Shown here one piece after another: positions 4,882 to 63,626 of a stretch of DNA of 64,000 nucleotides. Source of the stretch: a virus; IMG/VR virus record IMGVR_UViG_3300031521_000040, positions 1-64,000 of that record; one strand, 5' to 3'. A program made the position numbers and the translations under genes. Every line of letters begins with the position of its first letter. Positions within the stretch are counted from its first letter, which is position 1. The notes beneath the pieces were generated by a model. The model ran no database searches, was not told the DNA's origin, and saw only the letters and a program-made list of their open reading frames with translations.

Positions 4882-5152
4882 TATATTGGTTATATATATA
4901 GGTGTTGCAGGTATACGTTCTGAAGATATAGCAGAATACGTTGCAAAGGTTACAGCAAAGATTTCACCAACAGTTTTCGAAGGTGAAATTATTGTTATCC
5001 CCGTTCAATCACATGATACTAAAGTAGAATGTATTAATCCTTATTATGTTACTGATATTGATTTAATTAAGGAAAATACAGAAAAATTAAAAAAATTAAA
5101 AGATGAGCTTATATATCAAGCAGGACTATTAAAAATGAAAAACAATGAGTAG
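4874..5152 (+). CDS. hypothetical protein
   Basis: ORF coupled to phoH stop (ATGAATAA overlap) and to the next gene. Confidence 0.7.
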   Translation: MNNILVIYIGVAGIRSEDIAEYVAKVTAKISPTVFEGEIIVIPVQSHDTKVECINPYYVTDIDLIKENTEKLKKLKDELIYQAGLLKMKNNE

Positions 5153-5888
5153 AAAATTAAAAGTAGGTATTGATATTAATGAAGTATTTCGAGCTAAATG
5201 GAGTCAATTTGATAAATTCTATGTTGAAGAATTTGGCGAAGATGGTGTTCCTAAAGAACAGCCATATGTATATGACTTCTTCAATAAATATAAATTTGAA
5301 GATAAGGTTGAAATAACTAAAGAACTTAAAGAACCTGATGAAATGCCTGAAAATATTAATCCTTTGGATTATCAGGTTGACGAAAGATTAAAGGAAGCAC
5401 CAGCTGATGCCTTTTTATTTAAAGCACCTGAGAAGAAAGTGTTATTGGCTAAAGAAGTATATAATCGTTTCATGTATGAAGATTATGTATTTGAAATTCA
5501 TGGTTCAGCACCTGTTATGTATAGAAACATGGAAGTTGTTGTAAATAACTTTAATCAAAAATATACAGATACTGTCAATTTCACATTATTTTCAGTTGAA
5601 AACAGGTTCAGTATTCCATCAACGTTATTTTTCTTAAGTAAAATGGTTAGCAGATTTAAGAACATATCATTTGTTGATAAAGCAGTTGATATGTGGAACG
5701 ATGTTGATGTATTAATGACGACAGACCCTGAACTATTAGAATTGGGCGCACCATGGGGGAAAAAAATGATTAAAATCATAAGACCTTATAATGAGCACAT
5801 TAAAACAAGTGGGTTAGAAGTAATTGACATATCTGATTTAATTGATAACAAATATTTTGAAAAAATAATTAAATATAAAAAACAATAA
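5145..5888 (+). CDS. HAD-superfamily 5'(3')-nucleotidase-like protein
   Basis: N-terminal VGIDINEV motif I variant; C-terminal IKIIRPYN typical of NT5C-like proteins. Confidence 0.6.
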   Translation: MSRKLKVGIDINEVFRAKWSQFDKFYVEEFGEDGVPKEQPYVYDFFNKYKFEDKVEITKELKEPDEMPENINPLDYQVDERLKEAPADAFLFKAPEKKVLLAKEVYNRFMYEDYVFEIHGSAPVMYRNMEVVVNNFNQKYTDTVNFTLFSVENRFSIPSTLFFLSKMVSRFKNISFVDKAVDMWNDVDVLMTTDPELLELGAPWGKKMIKIIRPYNEHIKTSGLEVIDISDLIDNKYFEKIIKYKKQ

Positions 5889-5892
5889 CAAT

Positions 5893-7050
5893 ATGAATGA
5901 AGAAATAAAAACAGCAGTAGAACAAGATAATCTAGATAAGATTAATAAAATCAAAGCATCTTTAGATAAGCTAAAAAATAAAAAATCTAAGTTTATTTTC
6001 TGTGTGCCAGAAGCACAAAGTCCAGCAGCCAGTGTATATGAAATTTATTTTCATGCAACTGTTGTAAAAAACATGGGCTATGAGGTTGTAATGCTCGTTG
6101 AAAGAGGTGATTATGTTCCGCCAGTTTGGATTGAAAGAGAATTGACAAATCATGTACACATATCAATGGCTGAACCAAAGAATCTTATGGTCGGTCCTGA
6201 AGACATTATGATTATTCCTGAAGTTTTCTCAAATGTAATGGAGAAAACATTTAAAGATAAATTACCATGTGTTAGAATTGGTTTATTACAATCAGTTGAT
6301 TATATGGTAAATTCATTAATCCCGGGTATTGATTGGACTGCATTTGGCATTCACGATATTATAACAACATCACCAACATTAAAGGAATGGGTTGAAACAT
6401 ATTATGGTTTAAACAAATATAATATTAAAACATATAATGTTGGAATTCCAGAGTATTTTGAAAAAACAGAAATTCCACAGAAGCCAATCGTTTCAATCAT
6501 GGGAAGAAATGCTAATGAGATATCTAAATTTGTAAAGTTATTCTTTGCTAAATATCCTCAATATTCATGGTTAACCTTTGATCCTATGCTTACCAAAAGC
6601 AAACCAGCTCAATCAATGCGTAGAGTAGATTTTGCTAAGAGATTACAAGGCAACTTTGCTGCAGTTTGGATTGACAGAATTTCATCATTCGGTACATTTC
6701 CACTTGAATGTATGAAATCAGGTGTTATTCCAATCTGTCTTAAACCAGATATTATGCCTGAATTCATGCTTGAAAGAGACGAAGAAGGTAATGTTGTTAA
6801 AGTTGTAGAAGGCGCTGGTGTTTGGACTGATAACTTTTATGATTTGCCTATTTTAATGGGTGACGTATTAATTAAGTTTTTGGATGATAGCGTAACTGAT
6901 GCATTATATGAATCAATGGATAATGTTGTTTCAAGATTTAATCAAGTAGCATCAGAAAAAAGATTATCTGAAATATATCAAGAATATCTCAACGATAGAA
7001 TTAAACTATTTGAATTAGCATTACAACCTAAAGTAGAAGAAGCAAAATAA
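5893..7050 (+). CDS. glycosyltransferase, GT-B fold (GT4-like)
   Basis: DIMIIPE and SFGTFPLECMKSGVIPI (degenerate E-x7-E nucleotide-sugar motif). Confidence 0.75.
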   Translation: MNEEIKTAVEQDNLDKINKIKASLDKLKNKKSKFIFCVPEAQSPAASVYEIYFHATVVKNMGYEVVMLVERGDYVPPVWIERELTNHVHISMAEPKNLMVGPEDIMIIPEVFSNVMEKTFKDKLPCVRIGLLQSVDYMVNSLIPGIDWTAFGIHDIITTSPTLKEWVETYYGLNKYNIKTYNVGIPEYFEKTEIPQKPIVSIMGRNANEISKFVKLFFAKYPQYSWLTFDPMLTKSKPAQSMRRVDFAKRLQGNFAAVWIDRISSFGTFPLECMKSGVIPICLKPDIMPEFMLERDEEGNVVKVVEGAGVWTDNFYDLPILMGDVLIKFLDDSVTDALYESMDNVVSRFNQVASEKRLSEIYQEYLNDRIKLFELALQPKVEEAK

Positions 7051-7073
7051 TAATATATATAAAATATTTAAAT

Positions 7074-7880
7074 ATGAAAAATATTACTGTAATAATTCCA
7101 GTACACGAATTTAATGAAGTTGTTGAGGGCTATTTAGATAAAGCCATTGAGTCTGCGCAAAAACAAGAAAAAGTAACTGAGCAGCCAGAAATAATTATCG
7201 TTCATCCTGAAAATTTAACCGATGTTATGAATGAGCATAGTAAAAAGCATCTTGGTGTGGTTTATGGCGTAAATAAAGGTTTCGCTGACTATCAATCGCA
7301 AGTAAATCATGCTGTTGATCATGTTGATACCGATTATTTCACAGTTTTAGAATTTGACGATGAATTAGGAACTACGTTTATCAAAAACGGTAATCAATAT
7401 ATTAAGGCATATCCAGAAGTAGACGTTTTTCTAACCATGTTAATTGAAGTTAATGAAAAAAACGAAGGAATTAAAATGACCAATGAAACAGTATGGTCTG
7501 AAAACTTCGTAGGTGAAAATGGTGAAATGGGTTATCTTAATGTAAACGCACTTAAACAATATACTGATTTTAAATTGTCTGGTGCAATCATTAAAAAATC
7601 TGAATTTATCAATATTGGTAAATATAAGATTAATATTAAATTAGCATTCATGTATGAATTTATGCTTAGAGCATTGAATAATGCATGTAAAATAATTACG
7701 ATATCTAAAATAGGTTATAAGCATTTAGCAACCAGAGAAGGTAGTTTATTTGATACATATTTGAAGACTATGCCTATGAATGAAAGAAAATTTTGGTTTG
7801 ATACTGCAACGAATGAAGCTAATTTTATGAGTGATAGAACTATTGATATGTCAAGATTGAGTAAACAAATAATAGTCTAA
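7074..7880 (+). CDS. glycosyltransferase family 2 (GT-A fold)
   Basis: ITVIIPVH N-terminus; TDYFTVLEFDD DxD-like motif. Confidence 0.8.
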   Translation: MKNITVIIPVHEFNEVVEGYLDKAIESAQKQEKVTEQPEIIIVHPENLTDVMNEHSKKHLGVVYGVNKGFADYQSQVNHAVDHVDTDYFTVLEFDDELGTTFIKNGNQYIKAYPEVDVFLTMLIEVNEKNEGIKMTNETVWSENFVGENGEMGYLNVNALKQYTDFKLSGAIIKKSEFINIGKYKINIKLAFMYEFMLRALNNACKIITISKIGYKHLATREGSLFDTYLKTMPMNERKFWFDTATNEANFMSDRTIDMSRLSKQIIV

Positions 7881-7910
7881 AAATAACATTAAAATTCATT
7901 TATATGTGGA

Positions 7911-8663
7911 ATGATTGAAAACGAAGATAGTGCACCATATTTTGGAGAAAGAGAGGAAAAGGCTGTTTTAGATTATATTAATTCTGATTCCCAAGAAGAA
8001 AAGAATAGAATATATAATGAAATTCTAATAGAACCTTTTCGTAAAATGAAGGAGTCTATTTTAAGGCGCTACCCTATTCATATCGGAAATTATGATATGG
8101 AGGAAGTTGAATCAAATGCATTAACTCATTTGATTGAACATATGATTAAATTTAATCCAGATAAAATTACTAAATCGGGTAATAAAACAAAAGCTTATAG
8201 TTATTGTCAAACAATAATAAGAAATTATTATAAAGATCATAGCAAAAAAAGTTACATGGAGAAAAAGGTTAATCTATGCTTTGATGATTATGCTGAAGAA
8301 ATTAATGAAAGCCTTGATTATAGTTATGAGATAGAGTTAGAAAGCCAACATCATCTTGAAAAGTTGATTAACGGTGTAATCGCAAAAATAGATAATAAAA
8401 TCAGTTCTGATACATCAATGAAGAAAAATGAAATAATTGTTGGCGATGCAATTATTAATGTGCTAAGAAATTGGCATATACTCTTCATGGAAGATAGTCC
8501 TGATGGTAAGTATAACAAAAGAGTTACTAATAAATTTGCAAAAAACAAAATATTGTTCTTCTTAAAGGAACAAACCGAATTATCTACTAAAGAGATTCGA
8601 ATTGCAATTAAGCCGTTTAAGGAAATATATTTTATTGAAAAATTAAATTACTTAGATGATTAA
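7911..8663 (+). CDS. gp55-like late-transcription sigma factor
   Basis: KFNPDK...KAYSYCQTIIRNY resembles region 2 of T4-type gp55. Confidence 0.6.
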   Translation: MIENEDSAPYFGEREEKAVLDYINSDSQEEKNRIYNEILIEPFRKMKESILRRYPIHIGNYDMEEVESNALTHLIEHMIKFNPDKITKSGNKTKAYSYCQTIIRNYYKDHSKKSYMEKKVNLCFDDYAEEINESLDYSYEIELESQHHLEKLINGVIAKIDNKISSDTSMKKNEIIVGDAIINVLRNWHILFMEDSPDGKYNKRVTNKFAKNKILFFLKEQTELSTKEIRIAIKPFKEIYFIEKLNYLDD

Positions 8664-9192
8664 AGTATATCAAACAATTATTGATAAAGGACATGGCAAC
8701 TGCATGCAAGCTGTAGTTGCCAGCCTTTTAGAACTGCCATTAGAAGAAGTACCTAATTTCATTGAAATTAAGGAAGGTAGTTGGTTTCTTACTATGGAAC
8801 ATATGTTCGATGATCGTGGCTATGATCTTTGTACTATTGGTAGAGGTGGAAATACTGATACTGAAATGTTAAAAAAAATAGCTAAATTTGATGGTGGTGT
8901 TAATGGTTTTCTTTATGCTTCAGTACCATCCATGACTTTTGAAGGCTGTGGTCATGCCGTTATTGTAGATACTGATCTTAACATAGTACATGACCCCAAT
9001 CCCAATCAACTAGCTCTACAGCTTACTGCTGATGATATTGATTCTATAATGGTTTACCATGATATGCGAATTGGTAAAACAGGTAAATGTTTTACTCTTG
9101 AACAATGGGATAATTTATCTATTGAAGAAAAGGATACTAATACTTATAAAACAGTATATGATAAAGATGGAAAGGTTATAGGCAGTATATAA
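8656..9192 (+). CDS. hypothetical protein, possible papain-like Cys-His-Asp fold
   Basis: GNCMQAVVASLL...HAVIV...VHDPNP. Confidence 0.5.
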   Translation: MIKVYQTIIDKGHGNCMQAVVASLLELPLEEVPNFIEIKEGSWFLTMEHMFDDRGYDLCTIGRGGNTDTEMLKKIAKFDGGVNGFLYASVPSMTFEGCGHAVIVDTDLNIVHDPNPNQLALQLTADDIDSIMVYHDMRIGKTGKCFTLEQWDNLSIEEKDTNTYKTVYDKDGKVIGSI

Positions 9193-9208
9193 TAATTTTA
9201 AATAATTA

Positions 9209-15264: not shown

Positions 15265-16839
15265 TTAAATATTATTTATAAACATATATTTGTTATTTCC
15301 ACAATCATATATTCTAGGTATTTTCCTCTCCAACATTATTTCATGCTCTGTTTTGCTATTATCAAAGCCGTTGGTTACTAAGACATCTTTTCTAAATAAA
15401 AATCTGTGTTTTCTTTCTTTACCCACGACATACCAATAGTTAGGACTTGTAGTGTAAAGATATTCAAATTTTAATTGTTTATAGAGATTTCCATTGCTAT
15501 ACCGTTTATTGGCGAAGGTGATTACTGTTTTAGGTATGTAATGCAACAAAAAATATTTAAATAACTTAGATGCTGCACCTATATTACTATGATTTATTTT
15601 ATTACAAAATCTTAGCATTTCATAGTCATTCTCGTCGTTTTTCGTTTTGTTTCCTAAAACATTTCTGAGTTTACCAAACGTCATTAATGATATTAATTCA
15701 TTATTATTAAACAAGCCGATTTTTATTGATGAATTAACATTACCTTGTATGTGATTATTGTTTAGAAATTCCAGAGAGGTTTTACTATCAATTTCCCTTA
15801 TAATACATTTTCTAGCAAATATTTTGTGACTTGTTAAATTTAGTTTATTTTTTATAATTGATAATATGACATCATATTTTTCCAACAGCTCGTCTTCAAA
15901 GAAGTGTAATAATTGAATATTCTTTTCTTCACACATTTTAGTTTTTTTAATATGATAATCATCATCTATGTAGTATTCGGAGTGCCAATATAGTCCATCG
16001 ATTTCAATGGCTAAACGATAATCAGGAATGTAAATATCAAGCTCCAATCCAATAGTCTTTCTGTCGTTAGGAATATATGTTATATTACTTTCCTTTAAAA
16101 AATTACACAGTTTTCTTTCAAATGTTGTCCTAGGTGAACCAATTGGCTGTATTGTAGTGGATAACTCAACATTATGATTTAATCTGTTGTTGATCTGTTT
16201 TCTATTGCCAATAAAAACATGTCCATCCGGATGCAACACTTTTATGTTTTCATTAATAAATTCAAGTATTTTATACCCGCTTTCTTCAAATTTTTTTGAA
16301 AGAGCCAGTTGTCTTTTTATCTCTAATTTGGCTAATATATTTTTATGTATTTCAGCACCTCTTATTTTATATGTTTTTCTAAGATTACCCAAAGCTTTTA
16401 ATCTAACCTCTTCAATTTGAAACGTGTTATCAACGCCATATTTTTCAAAAACAGCTTTTTGTGTGGCTTTTATTCTTAATATAATATTTTCGGGTCTAGC
16501 CTGCCACTCAACTCTACATTTTTCACTGCAAAACATTCTTTCATGTGTAATCTTCTCAACAAACAATTCACCACAGATCAAGCATTTTCTAGTTTCTCTA
16601 GAATTAATTTTTTTTGCTTCATCCGAGCATAGTCGTGAACAATATCTAGTGTTGAATTTTTTTTTCGATCTAAATATTATTCCACAGCGCTCACATGGTT
16701 TTTCGATATAATATTTTTCATCATTTTTTTCTCTAAAATTTAGTTTACATTCTTTTGAGCAAAACATTGTTTCACGTCCTTTTTTAACATGAAATTCATT
16801 GCTGCAATGTTTACATACTAATTTAATAACTGTTGCCAT
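15265..16839 (-). CDS. Hef-like homing endonuclease: Zn fingers, Vsr/PD-(D/E)XK nuclease and C-terminal GNAT(Mom)-like domain
   Basis: three CxxC..(F/Y)CS..C repeats; LELDIYIP..LAIEIDGLYWHS; ARKC..NHIQG..MTFG..EMLRFC..GAASKL..YDCG. Confidence 0.8.
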   Translation of the reverse strand: MATVIKLVCKHCSNEFHVKKGRETMFCSKECKLNFREKNDEKYYIEKPCERCGIIFRSKKKFNTRYCSRLCSDEAKKINSRETRKCLICGELFVEKITHERMFCSEKCRVEWQARPENIILRIKATQKAVFEKYGVDNTFQIEEVRLKALGNLRKTYKIRGAEIHKNILAKLEIKRQLALSKKFEESGYKILEFINENIKVLHPDGHVFIGNRKQINNRLNHNVELSTTIQPIGSPRTTFERKLCNFLKESNITYIPNDRKTIGLELDIYIPDYRLAIEIDGLYWHSEYYIDDDYHIKKTKMCEEKNIQLLHFFEDELLEKYDVILSIIKNKLNLTSHKIFARKCIIREIDSKTSLEFLNNNHIQGNVNSSIKIGLFNNNELISLMTFGKLRNVLGNKTKNDENDYEMLRFCNKINHSNIGAASKLFKYFLLHYIPKTVITFANKRYSNGNLYKQLKFEYLYTTSPNYWYVVGKERKHRFLFRKDVLVTNGFDNSKTEHEIMLERKIPRIYDCGNNKYMFINNI

Positions 16840-20065: not shown

Positions 20066-22171
20066 ATGAACAAATCACAACAAATTTATTTTGATAGTGG
20101 CAATACTGGAAATGATATTCATACAAAGATAAGACTTGAACAAAATATTAATAGTATTGAATTTCTTAGCTTAAGCATAAGCGCTGAAGATGCTTATCAA
20201 AATTTTAATGCTGATTATGGCGTATTAATTGGAAGGGTAATTGCTAATGGTGGTATTGGCGTTCCAAATGCAAAAATAAGTATCTTCATTCCAATTAGTG
20301 ATACCGATTCATTGAATGGTGACATTGCTAGTGTCTATCCATATAAAACACCTAGAGATAAAAATAATGAAGGAAAAAGGTATAATCTATTACCACGAAC
20401 TTCAAAAATTAGCCCATTGACAGGTCAATGGTCGCCTAAACAGCCATTTGGCTCGTTTCCAATTAAAGAAGAAGTTGTAACTAATGATATATTACTAAGT
20501 GTTTATAAAAAATATTATAGATATACTGCATTAACTAATGATTCGGGCGATTATATGATGTTTGGCGTTCCCATAGGAACTCAAACAGTACATATGAGTG
20601 TAGATATTACTGACATTGGAAGATATAGTATGAATCCAGCATCAATGGTAACTAATTTAGGATACTCACCTAATTTATTTACTGCCGATAAAACCAAAAT
20701 AAAACCTAATAATGACCTAAACGATTTACCTAATATTGAAACACAGGAAATTGATGTGGATGTTATACCTTTTTGGGGTGATGCTACTAATTTCGAAATA
20801 GGTATAACTCGACAGGATTTTAGAATTAGATCAGTAATTGCAAATACTTTCGTTATTTTTGGAAGCGTGTTTACTGATGGTGATAATGCAATGTGGGGTG
20901 CTAATCCTAGTGGAAGTAGACGAATTTCGGAATTATTTCGTGCTAGAGACGATGCGAATACGACTATCGGCATATTCTCAAAGAGAACAGGTAAGGTTAC
21001 CGAAAAAATATATTACTATCCATCTAGCGTTAGTGATGATACAATCGATTCTGGAAATGCTAAGAATGATGGTAGCGACATGTTATTGTTAGACCCTAGT
21101 GAATATTCATTATATAGTGAAAATGGTAATTTTGTTGCCATAATAAATTGTAACAGAAATAAAGTTATAACGAATAATGGTGTTGAAACACCTGTTGCTG
21201 ATAATTCGCCTAATGGAGTATATACTAAATTTAGGGGATTTATGACAATTGAAATATTACCAGATGACGTACAAATGAATTTCACTGGTGATATTGGCGT
21301 TGATACGACACTTGTACCATTCAGATATATCTTAAAATTTCCACAATACGCTGAAAGAAATCAATCATTTATACAGCCAGATAGGTCAACAAGTAAAGAT
21401 TTTCCCAATACGAATCAATGGAGAAAGCAATCATACACTTTTACAGGTGGAAGCTTCTATAGTTTATCTAAATTTCATGGAACAGTATATAATGACTCCG
21501 CAACTGATGCTAATCAGGGTACAAATAATGGATTTTATAATCACGATACAATTAATAAACCACTCAATCAAGACCCTTTCTGGAATGTAGGTATTATTGC
21601 TACAAATACTTATGATGAAAAGTATCCTAACGATGCACTTAAGTTTCCAACTAATTCTAATATTACTGGCACATTAAAAACATTTGGTGCGAATTGGATG
21701 AATTTAAGTATTTATCTACCACAAGTTGGATTTCTGCAGGATGGCTCTAAATTTGTTTATCGTGTTAGATCAGCAGATCATTTCACACGTCAAATTCCAG
21801 ACGATAACGATCAGGGAAACAATGCATATTATTTTTACGATAACGATCAAAAAATTGCTGCTGGTGATATTAATACTAAATGGTTTGCACGTTCAGATTT
21901 AAACTGGACTGACTTTATCAATGTGCCAATTAATGATATTGTATATATGAAGGGCAAAGATAAGGGATTTAAGACTAATACGTTTGAATTAAGTGGTAAA
22001 TATCGAAACGGTACAATAATACCTCATGGATGGTCACACCCATGTCCAATGGATGGTGGAAAACTTGATGGTGATCCATTAATGTCAGCAGACCCTGCAA
22101 TCTATTTTTATAAAGGATTGGATGAAGTAGACTGTATTGAGTTTTTATATAAGTTAGGACTAATTAATTAA
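20066..22171 (+). CDS. putative virion structural protein with an Ig/prealbumin-like N-terminal domain
   Basis: GRVIANGG.GVPNAKISIF...TNDSGDYMMFGVP.G; late motif upstream. Confidence 0.6.
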   Translation: MNKSQQIYFDSGNTGNDIHTKIRLEQNINSIEFLSLSISAEDAYQNFNADYGVLIGRVIANGGIGVPNAKISIFIPISDTDSLNGDIASVYPYKTPRDKNNEGKRYNLLPRTSKISPLTGQWSPKQPFGSFPIKEEVVTNDILLSVYKKYYRYTALTNDSGDYMMFGVPIGTQTVHMSVDITDIGRYSMNPASMVTNLGYSPNLFTADKTKIKPNNDLNDLPNIETQEIDVDVIPFWGDATNFEIGITRQDFRIRSVIANTFVIFGSVFTDGDNAMWGANPSGSRRISELFRARDDANTTIGIFSKRTGKVTEKIYYYPSSVSDDTIDSGNAKNDGSDMLLLDPSEYSLYSENGNFVAIINCNRNKVITNNGVETPVADNSPNGVYTKFRGFMTIEILPDDVQMNFTGDIGVDTTLVPFRYILKFPQYAERNQSFIQPDRSTSKDFPNTNQWRKQSYTFTGGSFYSLSKFHGTVYNDSATDANQGTNNGFYNHDTINKPLNQDPFWNVGIIATNTYDEKYPNDALKFPTNSNITGTLKTFGANWMNLSIYLPQVGFLQDGSKFVYRVRSADHFTRQIPDDNDQGNNAYYFYDNDQKIAAGDINTKWFARSDLNWTDFINVPINDIVYMKGKDKGFKTNTFELSGKYRNGTIIPHGWSHPCPMDGGKLDGDPLMSADPAIYFYKGLDEVDCIEFLYKLGLIN

Positions 22172-22196: not shown

Positions 22197-23351
22197 ATGG
22201 ATAATCAAGTTAAAATATTACTTAATAGCAATCAGAATGTTAATTCTGTCAATGTAGATATGTATGAAAAAGTCAGTTTAAATAATAATATTTCCGAAAT
22301 CAATGAATATGATATTAGAAATAGTATTAGCGCAACTGAAATATTTGATATTGAGAGAAATAGAAATAGTATCTATAGAATATATGGAAAAATTGAATAT
22401 TTATCATTACTTAATGGACTTCGTAACAACTATAGTAAATTTGAGGATTTTTTTTCACCACAAATAAGTGATGGTAAAAGTATATTAAATTCATTTGATT
22501 TTTATTTAGTGAGAGCAACAACTGGATATACTAAGATTGTGGGAAGTGGCTCAACATGGGTTAGATATTTTAATGTTGTGTCAACACCAAAAGATTTCGA
22601 ACTATTTCCAGTAGGATTTTCTAATAATATATATGGTGAACAAGAATATTCATTTAATTTTAATGCTGATTTTAATGTTTCTAAATATTATGACGAATTT
22701 GGATTTCCAGTTACCGAATTATTTCTATATGCTCAATATAAAAAGGCTGCCAATCCAGTAGAAACATTATATTCTACAATGTGGTCAAGCTATGGCATTT
22801 CGGGAAAAACAATAACAAATACAATTCCATTAAACATTGGTGATTATGTAAAAAACAGTGTAGGTCAAAAGATTGGTGACTTAATTGAATATATTAAAGA
22901 TGATTTCAGTCAGATAGAACTATTTCCACAGGTTTATTATATAACAACGCCATGGACAGGCGGTAGTCTTCAATGGTGCTACAATCCGTTTATACCAATA
23001 AGACTAAGATATTTAACAGATAATGTATATACTGCTAATACGGGGAGTACTACATATGATCTAGTTGAATCCATACCATCATATGCAACAAAAATTGATA
23101 ATAATGGAAATTTTGTTTGGAGAGATATCATGCCTGAAGGATTTATTGATCCATTAACTGGAATAGGTACTGACTATCCGTTTATTAATGGAAAAAGATA
23201 TTTATTTACATCGATCATATTTGATATTATTCCAAATCTGGAAGATGCAGTAACAGCACACGCATTTAGTGATGTATGGTATACAAGGAACGCTAATAAT
23301 TCAAGCATAACACCAACAGGTAATATTAATGATATAGGTAAGCCATGTTAA
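22197..23351 (+). CDS. putative virion structural protein
   Basis: 384 aa, beta-rich; GTATTTAT at 22184-22191. Confidence 0.55.
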   Translation: MDNQVKILLNSNQNVNSVNVDMYEKVSLNNNISEINEYDIRNSISATEIFDIERNRNSIYRIYGKIEYLSLLNGLRNNYSKFEDFFSPQISDGKSILNSFDFYLVRATTGYTKIVGSGSTWVRYFNVVSTPKDFELFPVGFSNNIYGEQEYSFNFNADFNVSKYYDEFGFPVTELFLYAQYKKAANPVETLYSTMWSSYGISGKTITNTIPLNIGDYVKNSVGQKIGDLIEYIKDDFSQIELFPQVYYITTPWTGGSLQWCYNPFIPIRLRYLTDNVYTANTGSTTYDLVESIPSYATKIDNNGNFVWRDIMPEGFIDPLTGIGTDYPFINGKRYLFTSIIFDIIPNLEDAVTAHAFSDVWYTRNANNSSITPTGNINDIGKPC

Positions 23352-24124
23352 TAAAAGAAACAATATTTAATAGAGGAATTGATATGAGCTTAAAAATTAA
23401 TATAGGCTCAAATGATAGCTTTTTAGGATATCAGCAAGAAATTGATAATATTGTTGAAGAAGTATCAGCAGGATTAATTAACTCAATTGTTGATGCGGAA
23501 AAACGAAAATTTAGTTTAAATTCTACAATACCTAATACCAAATTGCAATTTAATTTTAATGGTTTTAATACATTTATTGGTGCTGGCTTTACTGTTAAGG
23601 AAGTAATAACTAATAGCCAGACAATGCTAAACAGTTTTTTTATATTAGATTTTTACGATACGTTTGACCCTAACACACAGCAAAAAATATTCACCACATA
23701 CTTGACTAAGGTTGGTTATATACCGAACTATAATATTAGCGCAAGCACTAGTAATCAATTATACTATTGGTATATACCAATTTCATATACAACTGTACAA
23801 ACAGGCAGTACAGCGATTGGTTATGTTAAATTTAGTTTCTATAATGCTAAGTCAGGCATAACCACGCAATTTTATAACCAATATAATTCAAGTTTAACAA
23901 CAGCAGAGAAAATGTACTTCAAATGCGAACTAAATCTTTTAGATAAAACATGGAGATTTTTGAATATGCCTAATTCAGTTGTAATTGCTAACGAATTAAC
24001 GAACAGTATATTATATAACGATAAAATCAATAACACATATAATACGTTTAATAAAACAATACAGGTTTTTCCAACAGGTAATAGCTATAATTATGTTGAT
24101 AACAAATATAGGCTAATTACATAA
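23345..24124 (+). CDS. putative virion structural protein
   Basis: 259 aa, coupled to the previous gene; NSFFILDFYD motif. Confidence 0.55.
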   Translation: MLIKETIFNRGIDMSLKINIGSNDSFLGYQQEIDNIVEEVSAGLINSIVDAEKRKFSLNSTIPNTKLQFNFNGFNTFIGAGFTVKEVITNSQTMLNSFFILDFYDTFDPNTQQKIFTTYLTKVGYIPNYNISASTSNQLYYWYIPISYTTVQTGSTAIGYVKFSFYNAKSGITTQFYNQYNSSLTTAEKMYFKCELNLLDKTWRFLNMPNSVVIANELTNSILYNDKINNTYNTFNKTIQVFPTGNSYNYVDNKYRLIT

Positions 24125-26007: not shown

Positions 26008-26460
26008 ATGAAATATAATATAAGTGAAGATAGTGGCACATCAATAACAGTAGCCCCTACACAGATAAAATTTAAGAAATTAATACCTGAAGCACAAGTG
26101 CCATTTAAAAAATATACACCTGATGCTGGATTTGATCTCTATTGTACTTCAATAGTTAAAAAGAATAAGTATATAGAATATCACACAGGACTTGCTATGG
26201 AAATACCTGTTGGTATGGTTGGTATTATCGTCCCAAGAAGCTCGATAACCGACTATGATTTAATGCTTAAAAATTCTTTGGGTATTATTAATTCAGGTGT
26301 TTCAGAAGAAATTATTCTATATTTCAGTGATGTTAAGGAATATAGTATGACACAAAAGAAAGAAATTTATAGTGTTGGTGATAGTATTGGTGTTATTTTT
26401 TTTATTGAAGTACCTAATGTTAATTTATGTGAAGTAGAGGACTTCGATGAAATACAATAG
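26008..26460 (+). CDS. degenerate dUTPase-like protein
   Basis: DAGFDL and PRSS present; motif III reads GIINSGVSEE and motif V is absent. Confidence 0.75.
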   Translation: MKYNISEDSGTSITVAPTQIKFKKLIPEAQVPFKKYTPDAGFDLYCTSIVKKNKYIEYHTGLAMEIPVGMVGIIVPRSSITDYDLMLKNSLGIINSGVSEEIILYFSDVKEYSMTQKKEIYSVGDSIGVIFFIEVPNVNLCEVEDFDEIQ

Positions 26461-39044: not shown

Positions 39045-40774
39045 TCGGTAATTAATTTAAATTCAAAAAAGTCATAATACCATGGCTTGCCTGTTTTCAG
39101 CTCAATTTGTTTTCTTTTAAATTTTGATTCTAATATAAAATCTGGATATGTTTCGGTAATATGTATGGTCAAACAGCCTGATTTATTTATATAATCAGTA
39201 AATACTCTACCTGTTTTTTTACATGTTAAAACATAATGATTTACTGAATTGTAATTGTCATCGACAGGTTTAGCTCTTTTGGTGAAAATTCCACTGAGCG
39301 TCGAAAAATTAATATCATATTTTCTTGAAATTTCCCTGATTGGCATATTATCTTTTTCATAATCACTATATATGCACTTCAATTCATCCACAGAGAATTC
39401 CTCTAATGTTCTATGTTTTTGAGAACTAAATGATTTTTGTGTGTTATTAATATAGTCCTCTTCGTAGCACCAATAAATGTTTTGATTATTTTTTGTATGT
39501 CCCAAGCATTTCCTCAGAATTTGTTCATGTGATAGTCCATCGATATTATTTCTTCCAGCATCAGCTAAAGATGAATATCTTTCAATAATGGTATCAATAT
39601 TTCTATCAATTTTAATAACAGGCTTGGATACTTGAATAACTCTTTTCTGAATCCATTCTTTACTTTGCTTGACATTTTTTCTAATTCTAGATAATTTTTC
39701 TTTGGTTTCATCATGACTAAAAGACCTTATTCCACCAAATTCAATATTATAACCCAAATTTCTATTAGTTGAGTCGTATTCATAAATATATTTAATTTCT
39801 TTATAGTTTAATTCATCAGTTGTTTGTGCAGTATCTATAATATTAAACTTAAATTTATCGAATCCATATTTGTCGAAAGCTTTTAATACATATAAATTAC
39901 AACACTTAGCTCTGTTTTTGTATTCATTATATCTATCGTTAAAGCCTCTTGTTGTTTGACCTACATATTTTTTATTATTTACAGTATTCTCAATTAAATA
40001 AATTATACCAGCAATTTCGTTGTTTTTTTTAGGGTATTCTAATTTTATGTGCTTAATCGATTCAAGAAATTTTTTATTTTCTACTTTATTACCTATAAAA
40101 TAGAAGTATCTTCTTTTTCTATATTGTGAAAGAAAAATTGCATTAGGATATTTTTCTAATATTACATCTTTTTTAATTGTTCCAAATTCTTTCCTGATAG
40201 AGCGTGAATGTTTCAATTTTCCATCGATAAAAACCGAGAATCTCTTGGTTTCTCTTCCGTTTTTTCCGTAGTTTCCTGTCATGAGACCAACATAGTGCCA
40301 ATTTAGTGATTGATATATAATACCTATTTCACCAGCTGATGGGTCAACACTTGCTGTTATTATTTTATATTCTGTATTTTTTTTAAGCCAATCAGCTGTC
40401 TTAGAAATAAAATAGGAAGCTGTATTTTTTGGTGTCCACCAAAGGCATGTACCTCGACTTAATAATATTATTTTATTTGTATACCCATACTTATCCCAAG
40501 TAGTAGATTTATTTGCTGAGTATTCTTCTGAATATATAACAACGCCACCTAAATGGTATTCATTATCTATATTAAAATATATTCCAAAAAAATATCTATT
40601 AAATAACGGCATTGTTTTAAGCCATTCATATTTTAAAATAATATTTCTCGCTGTGCTAAAATCTATTAGTTCTATTTTTGTATTAGATAATGCAGCTTTG
40701 CCATAATCAAAATCAATTGTTGCGGATTCGATTTCTTCTTGTTTTTTACGTACTTTATATTGATATGCTTCCAT
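39041..40774 (-). CDS. Mom-like GNAT domain fused to a GIY-YIG endonuclease
   Basis: LSRG....PKNTASYFIS...ITASVDP..GE.G.IYQS.NW.Y.G (Mom-like), then IIYLIENTVNNKKYVGQT..R (GIY-YIG), NUMOD/HTH tail; start taken as MEAYQY. Confidence 0.8.
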   Translation of the reverse strand: MEAYQYKVRKKQEEIESATIDFDYGKAALSNTKIELIDFSTARNIILKYEWLKTMPLFNRYFFGIYFNIDNEYHLGGVVIYSEEYSANKSTTWDKYGYTNKIILLSRGTCLWWTPKNTASYFISKTADWLKKNTEYKIITASVDPSAGEIGIIYQSLNWHYVGLMTGNYGKNGRETKRFSVFIDGKLKHSRSIRKEFGTIKKDVILEKYPNAIFLSQYRKRRYFYFIGNKVENKKFLESIKHIKLEYPKKNNEIAGIIYLIENTVNNKKYVGQTTRGFNDRYNEYKNRAKCCNLYVLKAFDKYGFDKFKFNIIDTAQTTDELNYKEIKYIYEYDSTNRNLGYNIEFGGIRSFSHDETKEKLSRIRKNVKQSKEWIQKRVIQVSKPVIKIDRNIDTIIERYSSLADAGRNNIDGLSHEQILRKCLGHTKNNQNIYWCYEEDYINNTQKSFSSQKHRTLEEFSVDELKCIYSDYEKDNMPIREISRKYDINFSTLSGIFTKRAKPVDDNYNSVNHYVLTCKKTGRVFTDYINKSGCLTIHITETYPDFILESKFKRKQIELKTGKPWYYDFFEFKLITD

Positions 40775-40810
40775 TATAAATAATTTGATTTTACTCCAGA
40801 AAACAAAGGT

Positions 40811-40842
40811 AAAAAAAGACTTGCATATGTGCAAGTCTTTTT
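40811..40842 (-). terminator. intrinsic terminator after the major capsid gene
   Basis: aaaaagacttgca-tatg-tgcaagtcttttt; abuts a TACCTTTG -7 element (40804-40811) for the next gene. Confidence 0.85.
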
Positions 40843-40865: not shown

Positions 40866-42551
40866 TTATTGAAGATCACCGATTCCGAAAGTCTGAAGAC
40901 CATCACAATAGATTCTACCATAATAACGGTTAAGAACCATTTTCTTTGCATAACGTGTCATAATTCCACGAATTGGTGTAAAATCGAATGGGTTATACAT
41001 GACCGGCGTAAGCTGCATTGGTACGTAAGGAGCGTAGATGTAACCTGTTTCCAAGATACTAGTACCCTTATGTCCGATAAGAATTGTGTTTGCTGGTGAA
41101 TATGGGTCACGATACACGATGTAACGACCACTTAAGCTACCGATTTTTTCGATACCCATGTTGTATTTGTCTTCTTCTGGAGAAGCATTGCTAACGTGGA
41201 AATATTCCAAGTCATCAAATACTGCTGATACTTCAGGAGATACAACTACCCAACTAGCGCCACCACGAAGGGTTGCTTTATGAATCTGAGCTGAAATCTG
41301 GTTGATCTTTGTGATAAGAGTCTGATTCCAGTCTTTTTGTGTTCCATAATAAGTATTAGCTTGTCTACGAAGACCATTATAGTCCCAACGTGCAGTCCAA
41401 GCAGCACCTCTACGTAAGTCACGTAAAATCTCACGATCAATCTCAGCAGCCATTTGCTCTGACAATAAAGCTGTTAATTCAGCTTCAGCATCAATATTAT
41501 GAAACGCTGAAACGTCCTGAGCAAGCTCTGGAGTCCACATAGCTCTCATTTTACGTGTTTCAACAGAAACAGTAACTTGATCTAACTGGAATGTTACTTC
41601 TGCCATACGTGAATCTTCTTCAAGATCACTATAGCTTCTGTATTCATAGAAGAAACTTGTTGTTCCTGATGTAACAGCGCTTAATGGCTGATAACCGTTT
41701 GTTCCTGCATATTGAAGGTCAACTACTAATACGATATCACCTTGTTTGTTAACAATAGCTTGTCCGTATTTTTGTACCTTAACATTGAAAGGAAGTGAAT
41801 GTCCTTTAAGAACGTTTTGTTCTGTAAAACCTGCTGGTGCTACAAAATCTTTGTTAGATGTAATTTTCAAACTTGAAAGGAATGATTCAGTGTCCATCTG
41901 AACACCTGCAGGACCTACCAATTTACCTGAGTCGCTTACCAAGAAGCCATGAATAACAACTTGGATGAATTTTTCGCCAACTGTCCATGATGCACCTGTT
42001 GTTGTACCAGTGTGAACTGACATATCGCCTTTTGAACGATCAAACAATGAAGCACCTTCTTCGTTATATTCTGTTGCATAAAATGCATCATACAATGAAC
42101 GAGTTTCGAATTGTGTTCTTTCTCCAGCAGGTTTGTTTGCTGCATTGCCATAAGCACCGTTAGGTGATGTATGTTGATTACCAGCTGTTGTTGTGTGAGT
42201 GTCATCTTGTACTCTAACACTTGCTTTTGGATTTATGTAGTACAATTTACCAATAGGTAAATTAAGTGCCTGTACAGACACGATATCATTTGCTAAAAGC
42301 TTAGCAAATACCCTACGAATAACTGGAAACGCTACTGTTTCGAATTGTCCTGATGAAGCTGAATCTGATGATTCATTGATCATATAAGATAACTGATTTT
42401 CAAAAAGCTGTGCGCAATTTTCTTTCACGTTACCATCTAATCCTTCTAGCAAGCCGATTTTTTCCCAACGGTTTGTAGTTATTTCTCTTTGTTCACGAAG
42501 TTGTTTTAATCCAATATTGCCAACTTCGGCTGATTCCATTAAAAATCCCAT
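40866..42551 (-). CDS. gp23: major capsid protein (T4 gp23-like)
   Basis: FPVIRRVF..L.ANDIVSVQ, TRKMRA.WTPELAQD...FH.IDAEAEL, EIDREI, YAPYVP, F.P.RGIMTRY. Confidence 0.97.
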   Translation of the reverse strand: MGFLMESAEVGNIGLKQLREQREITTNRWEKIGLLEGLDGNVKENCAQLFENQLSYMINESSDSASSGQFETVAFPVIRRVFAKLLANDIVSVQALNLPIGKLYYINPKASVRVQDDTHTTTAGNQHTSPNGAYGNAANKPAGERTQFETRSLYDAFYATEYNEEGASLFDRSKGDMSVHTGTTTGASWTVGEKFIQVVIHGFLVSDSGKLVGPAGVQMDTESFLSSLKITSNKDFVAPAGFTEQNVLKGHSLPFNVKVQKYGQAIVNKQGDIVLVVDLQYAGTNGYQPLSAVTSGTTSFFYEYRSYSDLEEDSRMAEVTFQLDQVTVSVETRKMRAMWTPELAQDVSAFHNIDAEAELTALLSEQMAAEIDREILRDLRRGAAWTARWDYNGLRRQANTYYGTQKDWNQTLITKINQISAQIHKATLRGGASWVVVSPEVSAVFDDLEYFHVSNASPEEDKYNMGIEKIGSLSGRYIVYRDPYSPANTILIGHKGTSILETGYIYAPYVPMQLTPVMYNPFDFTPIRGIMTRYAKKMVLNRYYGRIYCDGLQTFGIGDLQ

Positions 42552-53281: not shown

Positions 53282-53395
53282 TTCTATAATTTTTTATAGT
53301 TTTTTATAAATACAAATATTTTCTGGAAAATACTTTCATATAAATACTATTTGATCTACATTTGTAAATCTAATTTAATTATCAGGGATATAATA

Positions 53396-54835
53396 ATGAA
53401 GGTCAATAGGTTTATTGAAAGAGGAAATTTAAAACATAATGGATTTTATGACTATTCATTAGTTATTGAAGCACAAATCAGAGAAAAGTTTAAAATTATT
53501 TGCCCAATACATGGCGTGTTTGAGCAAAGAGGTGATGCACATTTATCGGGACAGGGATGTGGTAAATGCAAAAAATCCATATTAAAATCTCAAAATGAAT
53601 TCGTTATAGATGCTAAAATAAAACATGAAAATTATTATGATTATACTCTTGTTAATTATGTAAATTCAAAGTTATGTGTTGACATTATTTGTCCTGTACA
53701 TGGGGTTTTTAAACAAACACCTGATAATCATCTAGCTGGTCATGGATGTGCTAAATGTGCATTTGTATTAAATTCATCTATAATGAAAAATGTTTCAGCA
53801 GATAAATTTGAAAATGAAGCAAACGAAACACATAACGATAAATATGATTATCAAAATTCAATATATACTAGAGCAAAAGATAAGATAAATATTAGCTGTA
53901 AAATACACGGGGAATTTAAACAAACACCGAACGATCATTTATCTGGAAAAGGTTGTCCTAAATGTGGAGTGAACCTATCGATAGGCGAAAATGAAGTACG
54001 TGACTTTATCGAAAATGAATTAGGTTTTAAAACAGATAAAATTAGAATAGAAAGTAAAGAAATTGATATTTTTATTCCAGAAAAAAATGTTGGCATTGAA
54101 TACGATGGTCTATATTGGCATTCGGATAATTTTAGGGATAAAAAATATCATTTAAATAAGACCTTATTATGTGAAGAACATAATATTCAACTACTTCATA
54201 TTTTTGAGGATGAATGGATTAATAAAAAAGAAATTGTTAAATCAATAATCAGGTCTAAATTAGGCGTTGTTAATAATAAAATATTTGCTAGAAAGTGCAT
54301 TGTAAAAGAATTGAAAGTAACTGATGTTACAAAATTTCTGTTTGTGAATCATTTACAAGGCAATGTAGGGGGCTGTGCTAGATATGGATTGTACTATAAT
54401 GACGAGCTAGTGTCATTAATGACATTCGGTAAAAAAAGAGCATCAATGGGTGTTAAGATTAGAATTGATGATGAATATGAAATGATGAGATTTTGTAACA
54501 AACTCAACGCAACTGTTGTTGGTGGAGCAAGTAAATTATTAAAACATTTTATAATAGAACATAATCCTGCCTCAATTCTAACATTTGCTGATAGAAGATA
54601 TTCCAATGGTAATTTATATCTAGAATTGGGTTTCAAGCATGTCGGGTATAGCGACCCTAACTATTTTTATTTTTCTAAAAACAGTCTAAAACGTGAATAT
54701 CGTTTTAAATACAGAAAAGATATTCTTATTAAGCAGGGATTTGATGCATTAAAAACCGAGCATCAAATCATGCAAGAAAGAGGGTATTATAAAATATTTG
54801 ATTGTGGTCATATAAAATTCATCATGCGTTTTTAA
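53396..54835 (+). CDS. Hef-like homing endonuclease: Zn-ribbon repeats, Vsr-like nuclease and C-terminal GNAT(Mom)-like domain
   Basis: three YDY...C..HG.F.Q...HL.G.GC..C repeats; EIDIFIP...GIEYDGLYWHS; ARKC..NHLQG..MTFG..RFC..GGASKL..FADRRYS..DCG; TACATTTG at 53357-53364. Confidence 0.82.
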   Translation: MKVNRFIERGNLKHNGFYDYSLVIEAQIREKFKIICPIHGVFEQRGDAHLSGQGCGKCKKSILKSQNEFVIDAKIKHENYYDYTLVNYVNSKLCVDIICPVHGVFKQTPDNHLAGHGCAKCAFVLNSSIMKNVSADKFENEANETHNDKYDYQNSIYTRAKDKINISCKIHGEFKQTPNDHLSGKGCPKCGVNLSIGENEVRDFIENELGFKTDKIRIESKEIDIFIPEKNVGIEYDGLYWHSDNFRDKKYHLNKTLLCEEHNIQLLHIFEDEWINKKEIVKSIIRSKLGVVNNKIFARKCIVKELKVTDVTKFLFVNHLQGNVGGCARYGLYYNDELVSLMTFGKKRASMGVKIRIDDEYEMMRFCNKLNATVVGGASKLLKHFIIEHNPASILTFADRRYSNGNLYLELGFKHVGYSDPNYFYFSKNSLKREYRFKYRKDILIKQGFDALKTEHQIMQERGYYKIFDCGHIKFIMRF

Positions 54836-60356: not shown

Positions 60357-60435
60357 TTTTATATTTTTAGTGTTTTTTGTTATTTATATTACATTTTTTT
60401 ATAAATACTTAATTGAGAGCAAAAAAATGTTTTAA

Positions 60436-60684: not shown

Positions 60685-60686
60685 AA

Positions 60687-61559: not shown

Positions 61560-61599
61560 ATAAATACATAATTATTAATTAAAGTAAAGGAGTATTTAT
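61560..61599. promoter_or_regulatory. back-to-back pair of GTATTTAT motifs
   Basis: 61560-61567 on the minus strand and 61592-61599 on the plus strand, between divergent genes. Confidence 0.7.
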
Positions 61600-61616
61600 T
61601 ATAAATTCTAGCACAG

Positions 61617-63626
61617 ATGAATTTAGAATGTTTAAACAACATAATTACAGATAACTTAGTAATTGACATTGATTTGACTAATGTTAATTCATGGATTAAT
61701 TTTAACAGCGATTTGACTGCATTTAGCCTTACAAAATGGAGCGAAGCTATTGTTGATAATATTAATTTAAATGATTTTGGGTTAACTGATTACGACAACG
61801 GAAAAACAGATATTATGTGGAGTGGAATCACGCTTACACCTAATAATGATTTATTTTCAGTATATAAAGTTGGATATAACACAGTTATCAATCCAACAAC
61901 AGGTCAAACAAGCGGATTTACATCAACAACACATTTTCTTCCAATTACAGGTATCACAAGTACAACTGGAAATTATTTTAATTTAAATGGCGGATATGTG
62001 CAAGGATTTTTCAAACTACAAGATTATAATTATACGTTATTACCTTCCAGATATGGAAAAGGTATAACAATTGAAACAATACTTAAATTATCGTCTAGTT
62101 CTCATGGTATATTTTATATGATGGGAGCACGTGCTGAAGATAAATATAATTCATATTTTAGTGGTGAAACTAAAACAGGCAGTACTACAACAGGCATAAT
62201 AACTAGTGAGGGAAATTATTTGAACGCTTTGATTGGTGATATTGTTACTAAGAAGAGTTTCCAAAGACCTGAAGAAAATACAGAAACCATTTATAGCGAA
62301 ACAGCTCAAATCAATAATCTGAAAAATAACGTTATTGCATTTGAAATAACAACTGATAGAAGACTTGGTTACAAATACTTGAATAATAACGGACTTGTCG
62401 TAAGTGAAGAATCACCAATAAAGATAACCGCAACTGGTTTTACTATGATTGACTTAACGTTCACGCCATATGAAAACATATATGACTTAGGATTGTTAAA
62501 ATGCATGAAACAAAGAATGGGTACATTAATGTTTTACGTAAATGGTCGTGCTGTTTGGATTATAAAGGATTTTCCTGAATTCTATTTTCATGGTTTCAGT
62601 AATCAAAAGGAAAAGGTATTGGGAATTCCATATTCAATAAGTTGGGGCGGTGGGTCTTTTGGATTGAAATATTCATGGCATTATGATTATCAAAAATATA
62701 ATATATATGATAATCAAGATAATACCTATATTACAACACATTTTTCTGTTCACGATAATCCCTTAGTATCAAATAATTTACTATCTGGAATTTCATTAAG
62801 CGCAAATACTAATGCTTTTAATGCAACAGTAATGGAAATTGTATCGACAGGTGCAACAGGTAATACTTACTTTGTTAAATTTAATAATCCAATCTCTGTT
62901 CTGTCGAATAGGAATTATACATTTACATTATCACTTAATAATCACGGCTTATTTAAAAACACTAATAATATAGGTGAAGCTGTTAATAATAAATTATCTA
63001 TTTTAGCATATAGTGATACTGTTGATGTTAGTTTTATGAATAGCATTGAATATGTATATCCTATTACAAGCCTACGTATGGAGGAAATACAGGCACTAGG
63101 GTTACATCCGTTTCAAGATAACCAAGAATATCAATATATTTATCCTAATGGCGTTATGTATTATGGTGAAACAGGTATCCCCGTTCTCGATGAATTCGGA
63201 AATGAAAATACATTTGGTTATGAAATGCCAATTAATCTAACTGGTAATACTTTATGGTATACAACTGGTGTAGATATGTGGAATGAACTTAAAGCAGTAA
63301 TTAGAACATCTGATAATACAGGTCAGAGCTTTATTAATGTTGGCTTATTGATTGAAACAACTGATACTTTAAATCTTAATAGTCCGCTATTTATCAGCGG
63401 ATTTACATATACTGCATCAGATATCTTAGTACATGATACTAGAAAAAATAATCTAACCATCGAAGAAAATTTCAACACATCGTTTATTGGTGGAATTCAA
63501 AAACTAAGAATATATAATAATGCGCTAACATCGCCAGAGGTGTTGCATAATGCGTTAATGGAAACCAAAGTTAATCCAAATATTATTGTAAGTAAGGGTG
63601 GAAGAATAATAACATATAGAGTATGA
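61617..63626 (+). CDS. putative virion protein with a LamG/ConA-like fold
   Basis: G.T.ETIL, LMFYVNG, FIGGIQKLRIYN.AL..PEV.HN; many S/T-G-x-T motifs. Confidence 0.65.
   Translation: MNLECLNNIITDNLVIDIDLTNVNSWINFNSDLTAFSLTKWSEAIVDNINLNDFGLTDYDNGKTDIMWSGITLTPNNDLFSVYKVGYNTVINPTTGQTSGFTSTTHFLPITGITSTTGNYFNLNGGYVQGFFKLQDYNYTLLPSRYGKGITIETILKLSSSSHGIFYMMGARAEDKYNSYFSGETKTGSTTTGIITSEGNYLNALIGDIVTKKSFQRPEENTETIYSETAQINNLKNNVIAFEITTDRRLGYKYLNNNGLVVSEESPIKITATGFTMIDLTFTPYENIYDLGLLKCMKQRMGTLMFYVNGRAVWIIKDFPEFYFHGFSNQKEKVLGIPYSISWGGGSFGLKYSWHYDYQKYNIYDNQDNTYITTHFSVHDNPLVSNNLLSGISLSANTNAFNATVMEIVSTGATGNTYFVKFNNPISVLSNRNYTFTLSLNNHGLFKNTNNIGEAVNNKLSILAYSDTVDVSFMNSIEYVYPITSLRMEEIQALGLHPFQDNQEYQYIYPNGVMYYGETGIPVLDEFGNENTFGYEMPINLTGNTLWYTTGVDMWNELKAVIRTSDNTGQSFINVGLLIETTDTLNLNSPLFISGFTYTASDILVHDTRKNNLTIEENFNTSFIGGIQKLRIYNNALTSPEVLHNALMETKVNPNIIVSKGGRIITYRV

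Follow-up and report, generated by a model that had tools for sequence, protein, structure and literature searches.

The first 64,000 nucleotides (nt) of an uncultured phage contig (IMG/VR record IMGVR_UViG_3300031521_000040; this whole stretch is referred to here as the window) encode several unrelated late proteins in which one short tetrapeptide, Ser/Thr-Gly-x-Thr ([ST]-G-x-T), is strongly over-represented. Outward-facing late virion proteins carry it approximately three to eleven times above chance. We regard the tetrapeptide as a putative sequon for modification of Ser/Thr residues, most plausibly by O-glycosylation, and assign to this reading, which is based on sequence analysis, a probability of roughly 0.4. 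A first-pass annotation of the window had proposed that a looser motif, [ST]-G-x-[ST], is recognized by phage-encoded glycosyltransferases (GTs) that coat the virion surface. That proposal is partly supported by the present analysis; the motif is specific, occurs in multiple protein families, is independent of the fold and is linked to GTs of the GT2 family, whereas the GT pair named in the annotation (5893–7880) does not track the motif.

A Thr-specific motif in unrelated late proteins

The expected number of motif copies in each protein was obtained from 2000 composition shuffles, the counted unit being [ST]G followed by x[ST] (Table 1). All the manual counts of the first-pass annotation were reproduced, and the enrichment holds against shuffled controls for four proteins, namely a protein of 669 amino acids (aa) encoded near the end of the window, the tail sheath, and the products of 22197–23351 and 23345–24124. 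In the 669-aa protein, the Thr form [ST]GxT alone accounts for 11 copies against 1.0 expected. The capsid protein had been included among the enriched proteins as well; its three copies were counted correctly, but they do not differ significantly from expectation. The annotation had also stated that the enrichment is not universal, which proved accurate for the 701-aa late protein (20066–22171), an internal contrast, as well as for terminase (0/6) and portal (1/6). Tube has 0/2. By the shuffle counts, no enrichment was detected in portal, tube, terminase, the tape-measure-like protein, the protease or the protein encoded upstream of the capsid gene. The claim that the motif marks exposed structural proteins is therefore retained for several unrelated late proteins, internal and non-virion ones being unenriched, but not for the capsid.

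The motif is sharper than originally described, because its fourth position is Thr only. In an uncultured relative, G001, SGxT occurs 92 times (29 expected) and TGxT 93 times (33 expected); SGxS and TGxS are at the expected level. A residue-by-residue profile of three related proteomes revealed that Ser (3.5-fold) and Thr (2.9-fold) are raised at position 1, but not Asp (1.2-fold) or Asn (0.8-fold). Apart from T-runs, only Gly (3.2-fold) is raised at position 2, and at position 4 only Thr (3.2-fold) is raised, but not Ser (1.2-fold), Val (1.1-fold) or Ile (1.0-fold). Pro and Arg never occupy position x; none of 357 motif copies has Pro there. The comparison phages T4, phiKZ, LR756508 and Flavobacterium phage immuto display a diffuse 1.5-fold rise at positions 1 and 4, with Phe, Trp and Ile also raised at position 4, as expected of a generic turn followed by a strand.

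Composition cannot account for the excess, since seven permuted patterns of the same composition, including [ST].G[ST], G[ST].[ST], [ST]G[ST] and [ST][^G].[ST], are not raised, and shuffling within 20-aa blocks gives an expectation equal to that of global shuffling. Position 1 of the motif uses both Ser codon families, and the codon use of the Gly and of the final Thr equals background, which rules out a word acting at the DNA level and indicates that selection acts on the protein. With regard to codons, ACC and TCC before GGN were found in none of approximately 220 motif copies (12 and 4–5 expected, respectively), a local effect of the avoidance of CCGG. A domain common to the motif-rich proteins of the window was ruled out as well, given that no similarity was detected among the four enriched proteins or between them and fibres.

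The 669-aa protein, the strongest carrier, is probably a lectin-like virion protein of the tail or baseplate, as judged from its predicted structure. The AlphaFold model (pLDDT 74.8) is all-beta, and Foldseek revealed a jelly-roll beta-sandwich fold with matches to laminin LG4-5, Gas6 LG, the lectin domain of trans-sialidase and many phage LamG proteins, and also to a cyanophage baseplate wedge and minor tail proteins. In the Pfam search, PF13385 was recorded on only one homologue and was absent from the 669-aa protein itself. Approximately 490 homologues were found, and 110 of them contain on average 12.9 motifs against 1.55 expected. At their conserved sites, position 1 toggles freely between Ser and Thr, and position 4 is Thr in 89% of the alignment cells, Ser in 2.5% and Ile or Val in 2%. 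Most of the 124 distant cluster representatives of this family carry 6–16 copies, and 20 carry 0–1. Two full-length homologues (37% and 31% identity) keep the conserved core with motif sites that read KTIE, DGRT, SGEK and NGNI; thus, the motif is dispensable for the fold. The motif-free homologues P0138 (from a 68-kb contig) and P0189 gave no match in IMG/VR. The most motif-saturated protein seen is a distant homologue, P0164 (1143 aa, from a 140-kb ENA contig), whose 73 [ST]G dipeptides include 61 that continue with xT (4 expected).

In the sheath, residues 634–930 align to the core of T4 gp18 (residues 356–653), and eight of the nine motif sites precede this part, at residues 123–554, which we take, from published gp18 structures, to correspond to the outward domains. 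Sheaths of relatives contain 5–7 copies of [ST]GxT against 1.5 expected, and those of comparison phages 0–3. The 384-aa protein (22197–23351) received no Pfam, PHROG or Atlas assignment; its orthologues in G001 and G005 carry 3–4 copies of [ST]GxT, and orthologues of the co-transcribed 259-aa protein carry 2–4 motifs, with approximately 0.25 expected in both cases. Capsid proteins of relatives carry 1–2 copies of [ST]GxT against 0.5 expected.

Table 1. Features of the window discussed in the text. Motif counts are [ST]G dipeptides in the form [ST]Gx[ST] over all [ST]G dipeptides, with the number expected from composition shuffles.
Feature	Coordinates	Strand	Motif count	Remarks
GT-B fold, GT4-like glycosyltransferase	5893–7050	+		AlphaFold and Foldseek
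GT2 (GT-A) glycosyltransferase, 268 aa	7074–7880	+		PF00535, 29.7 bits (cut-off 23.3)
Possible sigma-like factor	7911–8663	+		Sub-threshold: TIGR02937, E 0.0015, 18 bits; Sigma70_r2, E 0.19
Homing-endonuclease-type genes	15265–16839, 30551–31594, 32769–33992, 39041–40834, 53351–54835
Tail sheath, 930 aa	16965–19757	-	9/17, 2.5 expected, p 0.0005	PHROG 23, Pfam Phage_sheath_1C
Late protein, 701 aa, unenriched	20066–22171	+	2/11, 1.1 expected	GTATTTAT 20 nt upstream
Late protein, 384 aa, motif-rich	22197–23351	+	5/7, 0.6 expected, reached by 0/2000 shuffles	GTATTTAT 6 nt upstream
259-aa protein, motif-rich	23345–24124	+	3/3, 0.4 expected, p 0.005	Co-transcribed with 22197–23351
gp23-like major capsid protein	40866–42551	-	3/7, 0.94 expected, p 0.066	Pfam Gp23, E 4e-73
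Late-promoter-like word GTATTTAT (example)	61592–61599	+		18 nt upstream of the 61617 gene
Late protein, 669 aa	61617–63626	+	13/17, 1.7 expected, z 9, reached by 0/2000 shuffles	Tandem ConA-like/LamG jelly-roll domains; strongest motif carrier in the window

Distribution of the motif and of glycosyltransferases

Proteome-wide enrichment was calculated for 12 genomes as [ST]GxT/[ST]GxS, and a genome was considered GT2 positive when it encodes a PF00535 match above the cut-off. The values are 3.3/1.3 in this contig, 3.0/1.1 in G001, 3.6/1.4 in G005, 2.55/0.97 in G014, 2.2/1.1 in G030 and 1.7/1.04 in phage immuto (two GT2 genes), all of which are GT2 positive. The GT2-negative genomes are T4 (1.36/1.40), phiKZ (1.42/1.28), LR756508 (1.46/1.28), Staphylococcus phage K (1.61/1.46; GC 30%), Campylobacter phage CP220 (1.36/1.31; GC 27%) and the relative G029 (1.13/1.39; one sub-threshold GT2 match). 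The quotient of the two values, a Thr/Ser index, ranges from 1.6 to 2.7 in the six GT2-positive genomes and from 0.8 to 1.14 in the six GT2-negative ones. It separates the two sets fully (2 in 924 by simple combinatorics), although five of the six positive genomes form one related group and the link with GTs therefore rests on only about two independent lineages. The Thr-specific excess is found only in those of the 12 genomes that encode GT2-type enzymes.

Low GC content is not the cause of the enrichment, because the equally AT-rich phages K and CP220 stay at baseline without a Thr preference. A generic property of fibres was ruled out as well, since large S/T/G-rich (fibre-like) proteins reach 3.8–6.8-fold in the lineage but only 0.9–1.7-fold in T4, immuto, phiKZ and LR756508. 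Inflation by repeat paralogues alone was also rejected, as the ratio is still 2.1–3.2-fold once repeat-rich fibre paralogues are removed. A 489-aa Thr/Ser/Gly-rich protein of G001 (G001:215694–217163; L101:15694–17163) contains no [ST]GxT against 5.2 expected and may be internal or not part of the virion.

The GT-B and GT2 genes reported by the first-pass annotation at 5893–7880 were confirmed by the predicted fold of the former and the Pfam match of the latter. The model of the 5893–7050 product has a pLDDT of only 62.9. Foldseek detected the two Rossmann-like domains of GT4 enzymes, with matches to MshA, BshA, sucrose-phosphate synthase and an Actinobacillus glucosyltransferase (8xsh among the matches) at probability 1.0 and TM-scores of 0.5–0.59; T4 alpha-glucosyltransferase is also among the fold matches. 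Searches of this protein against Pfam (including Glycos_transf_1), PHROG, NCBIfam and PDB sequences gave no hit, and a profile of its family against PDB sequences found nothing. Its Atlas features match Glycos_transf_1 clusters, and its family contains an invariant FGTFPLECMK.G..P stretch, which in our judgement resembles the nucleotide-sugar motif of Glycos_transf_1. The gene is core in relatives (58–75% identity), and a homologue was found in 13 of 13 wider records tested. The GT2 enzyme contains a DxD motif (DTD at residues 85–87) and is likewise encoded by a core gene (53–70% identity over full-length matches in relatives). Neither enzyme has a transmembrane segment, and both are soluble. 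Since the two GT genes and the gene for the 669-aa protein are all core in the close clade, a co-occurrence test within that clade is uninformative.

Further GTs are abundant in the lineage, complete relatives having 3–9 GT2 matches. A sugar cluster of G001 comprises a Glyco_tranf_2_5 gene, three GT2 genes, a hexapeptide acetyltransferase gene and a DegT aminotransferase gene. In addition, G001 contains a mini-operon of GT32-like and GT2 genes, flanked by motif-rich fibre-like genes. Two LAGLIDADG homing-endonuclease genes, each behind a late-promoter-like word, are located among the GT genes of the sugar cluster (G001:131799–134559; L097:11799–14559).

The late-promoter-like word, GTATTTAT, is present in 27 copies in the window against 9.7 expected, and copies of it precede, by no more than 70 nt, the genes for sheath, tube, portal and terminase and the 20066, 22197 and 61617 genes, among others. 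The G001 mini-operon is also preceded by this word, whereas the window pair is not.

The contig comprises 83,181 bp with approximately 30% GC and is estimated to be 27% complete. The window encodes a gp23-like capsid protein, the sheath, a tube, a portal, a large terminase, a prohead protease, a 1632-aa protein with a C-terminal peptidase, and numerous homing endonucleases. Close relatives are uncultured IMG/VR phages of 320–365 kb. In GenBank phages, no tblastn match to the GT-B protein or the 669-aa protein was found. The closest capsid proteins beyond the group, at approximately 31% identity, are those of huge uncultured phages and phage immuto, and the lineage, a large group of uncultured jumbo phages, probably infects Bacteroidota. 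Scattered between the structural genes are five large genes of the homing-endonuclease type (HNH, GIY-YIG, some with a Mom-like domain; Table 1), and a helicase (35618–38164) contains a LAGLIDADG-like stretch at residues 319–387, a possible intein.

Modification sequon or structural element

In the reading that we prefer, [ST]-G-x-T would be a recognition word common to the outward-facing late virion proteins of a large jumbo-phage group, and would serve as the acceptor site at which a phage-encoded enzyme modifies Ser/Thr in the cytoplasm, either before the particle is assembled or while assembly proceeds. The modification would most plausibly be O-glycosylation, because the lineage has soluble GTs and sugar-modifying enzymes. 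A trans-acting cause appears to be the most economical one, since the word is fold-independent, residue-exact and present in many unrelated outer proteins of transferase-rich phages. The narrower prediction that it is a true O-glycosylation sequon read by a conserved soluble phage GT, so that the sheath surface, the lectin-like tail protein and the fibres would be sugar-coated, is more doubtful and must be considered rather unlikely.

In addition to the small number of independent lineages mentioned above, several observations weigh against a modification sequon. The first concern the enzymes. The first-pass annotation had linked the motif to the pair at 5893–7880, but G029 retains both genes and has 0/7 motifs in its homologue of the 669-aa protein; hence, the pair does not track the motif. 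The late-promoter-like word precedes every structural gene, whereas the pair sits in a block that extends from PhoH to the sigma-like gene; GTATTTAT has no copy in this block (3994–9208) and none in the corresponding block of G001. A late sigma gene, described by the annotation as a neighbour of the pair, could not be substantiated either; 5145–5888, apparently the gene that was meant, gave no hit, and 7911–8663 gave only sub-threshold sigma-70-like hits. Given that the pair is without the late mark and survives loss of the motif, it is unlikely to read the word and is probably not the motif-reading enzyme, or not the sole one. A transferase of the Glyco_tranf_2_5 type, seen only in motif-rich relatives (G001:132808–133503, and also G005 and G030) and located outside this contig, is a better candidate reader. 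Its absence from G029 is weak evidence, because G029 is 65% complete and lacks the tail module. The variable GT clusters, moreover, differ among relatives while the motif is uniform. As for the proteins, a non-structural dUTPase-like protein (26008–26460) also carries the motif, at two of its three [ST]G (p 0.01), and departs in a small way from the virion-only pattern, and the motif is mildly enriched, by approximately 1.4–1.6-fold, in unrelated phages. The remaining observations of this kind, on site conservation, site location and fibre repeats, equally bear on the closest alternative.

That alternative, which is nearly as likely as a modification sequon, is a purely structural role, in which a Ser/Thr-Gly turn is followed by a Thr that opens a beta-strand (strand N-cap). 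The word would then be inherited with beta-sandwich and beta-helical virion proteins, nothing would be attached to it, and the GTs would serve another purpose. The first-pass annotation had expected the sites to lie in exposed loops; by secondary-structure context in the model of the 669-aa protein, four of the 13 sites lie in loops, seven straddle a loop-to-strand boundary and two lie inside strands, and Thr is the first strand residue at positions 72, 102, 417 and 545. The seven boundary sites, together with a weaker version of the same pattern in another phage, leave a structural role open. A weaker version of the word is present in every phage tested (1.1–1.7-fold), and T4 gp37 reaches approximately 2.9-fold. 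Among the 110 homologues of the 669-aa protein, conservation reaches 80% or more at eight sites, with a near-invariant to invariant Gly and a near-invariant Thr; eleven sites are intermediate, and rare sites occur at background frequency only. Such conservation fits a structural cap and equally a conserved acceptor. In the fibre-like giants of relatives, the motif is embedded within several distinct repeat units, for example LGGTLTGNTTI and HTG[DN]T[DN]IH, and these proteins are partly paralogous. A structural role is, however, at odds with the full-length homologues of the 669-aa protein that keep the fold without the motif, and with the residue profile; a generic preference for a turn followed by a strand should also favour Asp/Asn at the first position and Val/Ile at the fourth, and none of these is raised. 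Furthermore, the motif was acquired jointly by seven or more unrelated families, and fibre-like proteins of other phages are unenriched.

It is also conceivable, though on balance unlikely, that the substrate of the GT-B and GT2 pair is phage DNA, with glycosylated hydroxymethyl-pyrimidines as the product, or glycans of the host envelope, and that the pair is unrelated to the motif. The location of the pair beside PhoH and the sigma-like gene in a block without the late-promoter word, its persistence in the motif-free G029 and the T4 alpha-glucosyltransferase among the fold matches are in line with this possibility, and phage transferases that hypermodify DNA are known (bioRxiv 10.1101/2023.12.21.572611). 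However, no route to 5-hydroxymethyl-pyrimidine was found, by way of either a ThyA-like hydroxymethylase or a C5-methyltransferase combined with a TET enzyme. Each genome has a single thymidylate synthase, recognized as bona fide ThyA by the equivalog model, and a further ThyA-like gene was not found; PF00145 (C5-methyltransferase) was absent in a search whose positive control worked, and Tet_JBP (PF12851) gave no match, though the control of that search was silent. Unlike GtrB-type serotype converters, both enzymes lack membrane segments. Avoidance of short palindromes is, in addition, extreme. This contig lacks GGCC and CGCG altogether (50 and 25 expected, respectively), and the window has 12 CCGG where 34 would be expected; G001 lacks AGCT (0/435), GGCC (0/178) and CGCG (0/96) and is depleted in GATC (285/885), and GATC is missing from G029 (0/615). 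T4 shows no such loss except for GATC. This elimination suggests that the DNA is exposed to restriction and not blanket-protected, which makes DNA glycosylation less likely. The sets of lost palindromes differ between relatives (this contig, G001, G005, G029 and G030), as if tracking the restriction enzymes of each host. The thymidylate synthase of the window (27948–29054) is approximately 100 aa longer than the Pfam model, its residues 2–362 covering model positions 1–265, and in G001 and G004 the match consists of two pieces in one open frame, i.e., an insertion.

Finally, a different role, for example phosphorylation, acylation, recognition by an assembly chaperone particular to the lineage, or binding of host polysaccharide by exposed Ser/Thr pairs, would yield the same lineage-wide, multi-family and fold-independent pattern and would suit a lectin-like 669-aa protein and a window pair that does not track the motif, but it is improbable, because GTs are the only abundant modifying enzymes seen and no kinase or other candidate enzyme turned up, without a systematic search for one.

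Relation to known glycosylation systems

Virion proteins of mycobacteriophages are reported to be O-glycosylated by phage-encoded GTs on C-terminal extensions of the capsid and tail-tube proteins (Freeman et al. 2023, as summarized in PMC12619734). The two systems share a tailed phage with its own GTs and exposed virion proteins as actual or proposed targets. They differ in that the tube and capsid are not enriched here, and in that a short defined word, predicted from sequence only, is dispersed through the folded domains of the sheath, the lectin-like protein and the fibres. To our knowledge, glycosylation of phage particles is known from a few mycobacteriophages, with no sequence rule defined.

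Among bacterial systems, SgtA of Clostridioides difficile, a soluble GT-A enzyme, adds O-GlcNAc to Thr of the Gly-Pro-Thr repeats of BclA3 (PMC7157674). The resemblance lies in a soluble GT-A-type enzyme (here, the GT2 of 7074–7880), a surface structural protein and a Gly-x-Thr core. SgtA, however, has TPR repeats and also accepts Ser, whereas the GT2 domain is the only domain found in the 268-aa enzyme. The BclA3 acceptor is collagen-like, whereas in the phage motif there are no collagen repeats, Pro never occupies position x and Ser/Thr precedes Gly. The heptosyltransferases TibC and AAH hyperglycosylate the beta-helical autotransporters TibA and AIDA-I in the cytoplasm (PMC4358343). A dedicated soluble enzyme that glycosylates beta-rich repeat proteins at many sites in the cytoplasm would match the scheme proposed here, but TibC/AAH enzymes form an iron-finger dodecamer, use ADP-heptose and act on bacterial adhesins, and no homologue was seen here.

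Giant viruses encode glycan machinery in which GTs are clustered with sugar aminotransferase and acetyltransferase genes (PMC9614988). G001 resembles them in the composition of its GT cluster, while giant viruses have eukaryotic hosts and other capsid proteins. We know of no description of the [ST]-G-x-T word for giant viruses. Phage transferases can also decorate DNA (bioRxiv 10.1101/2023.12.21.572611), and the T4 alpha- and beta-glucosyltransferases are, like the GT-B enzyme described here, soluble GT-B fold proteins outside the late regulon; unlike in T4-type DNA glucosylation, a hydroxymethyl-pyrimidine route was not found here and palindromes are strongly avoided. Moraphages are large aquatic jumbo phages, likewise uncultured, for which Bacteroidota hosts are predicted; they have four core GT groups without an assigned role (PMC12619734). 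Their genomes reach 307 kb compared with 320–365 kb here, and the likeness is one of description only. No [ST]-G-x-T rule was found in the papers cited here on moraphages, SgtA–BclA3, TibC-type enzymes or phage DNA glycosylation.

If the motif is structural, it would represent a sharply defined strand-capping word favoured by one phage group, which would be a far smaller surprise, though one that could interest protein designers. If it is a modification site, phage virion glycosylation would have its first defined sequon, and, should this be true across hundreds of environmental giant phages, glycosites would become predictable from metagenomes. Many orphan GTs of jumbo phages would thereby gain a role, and the finding would be relevant to the escape of phage particles from recognition or to their adhesion to surfaces.

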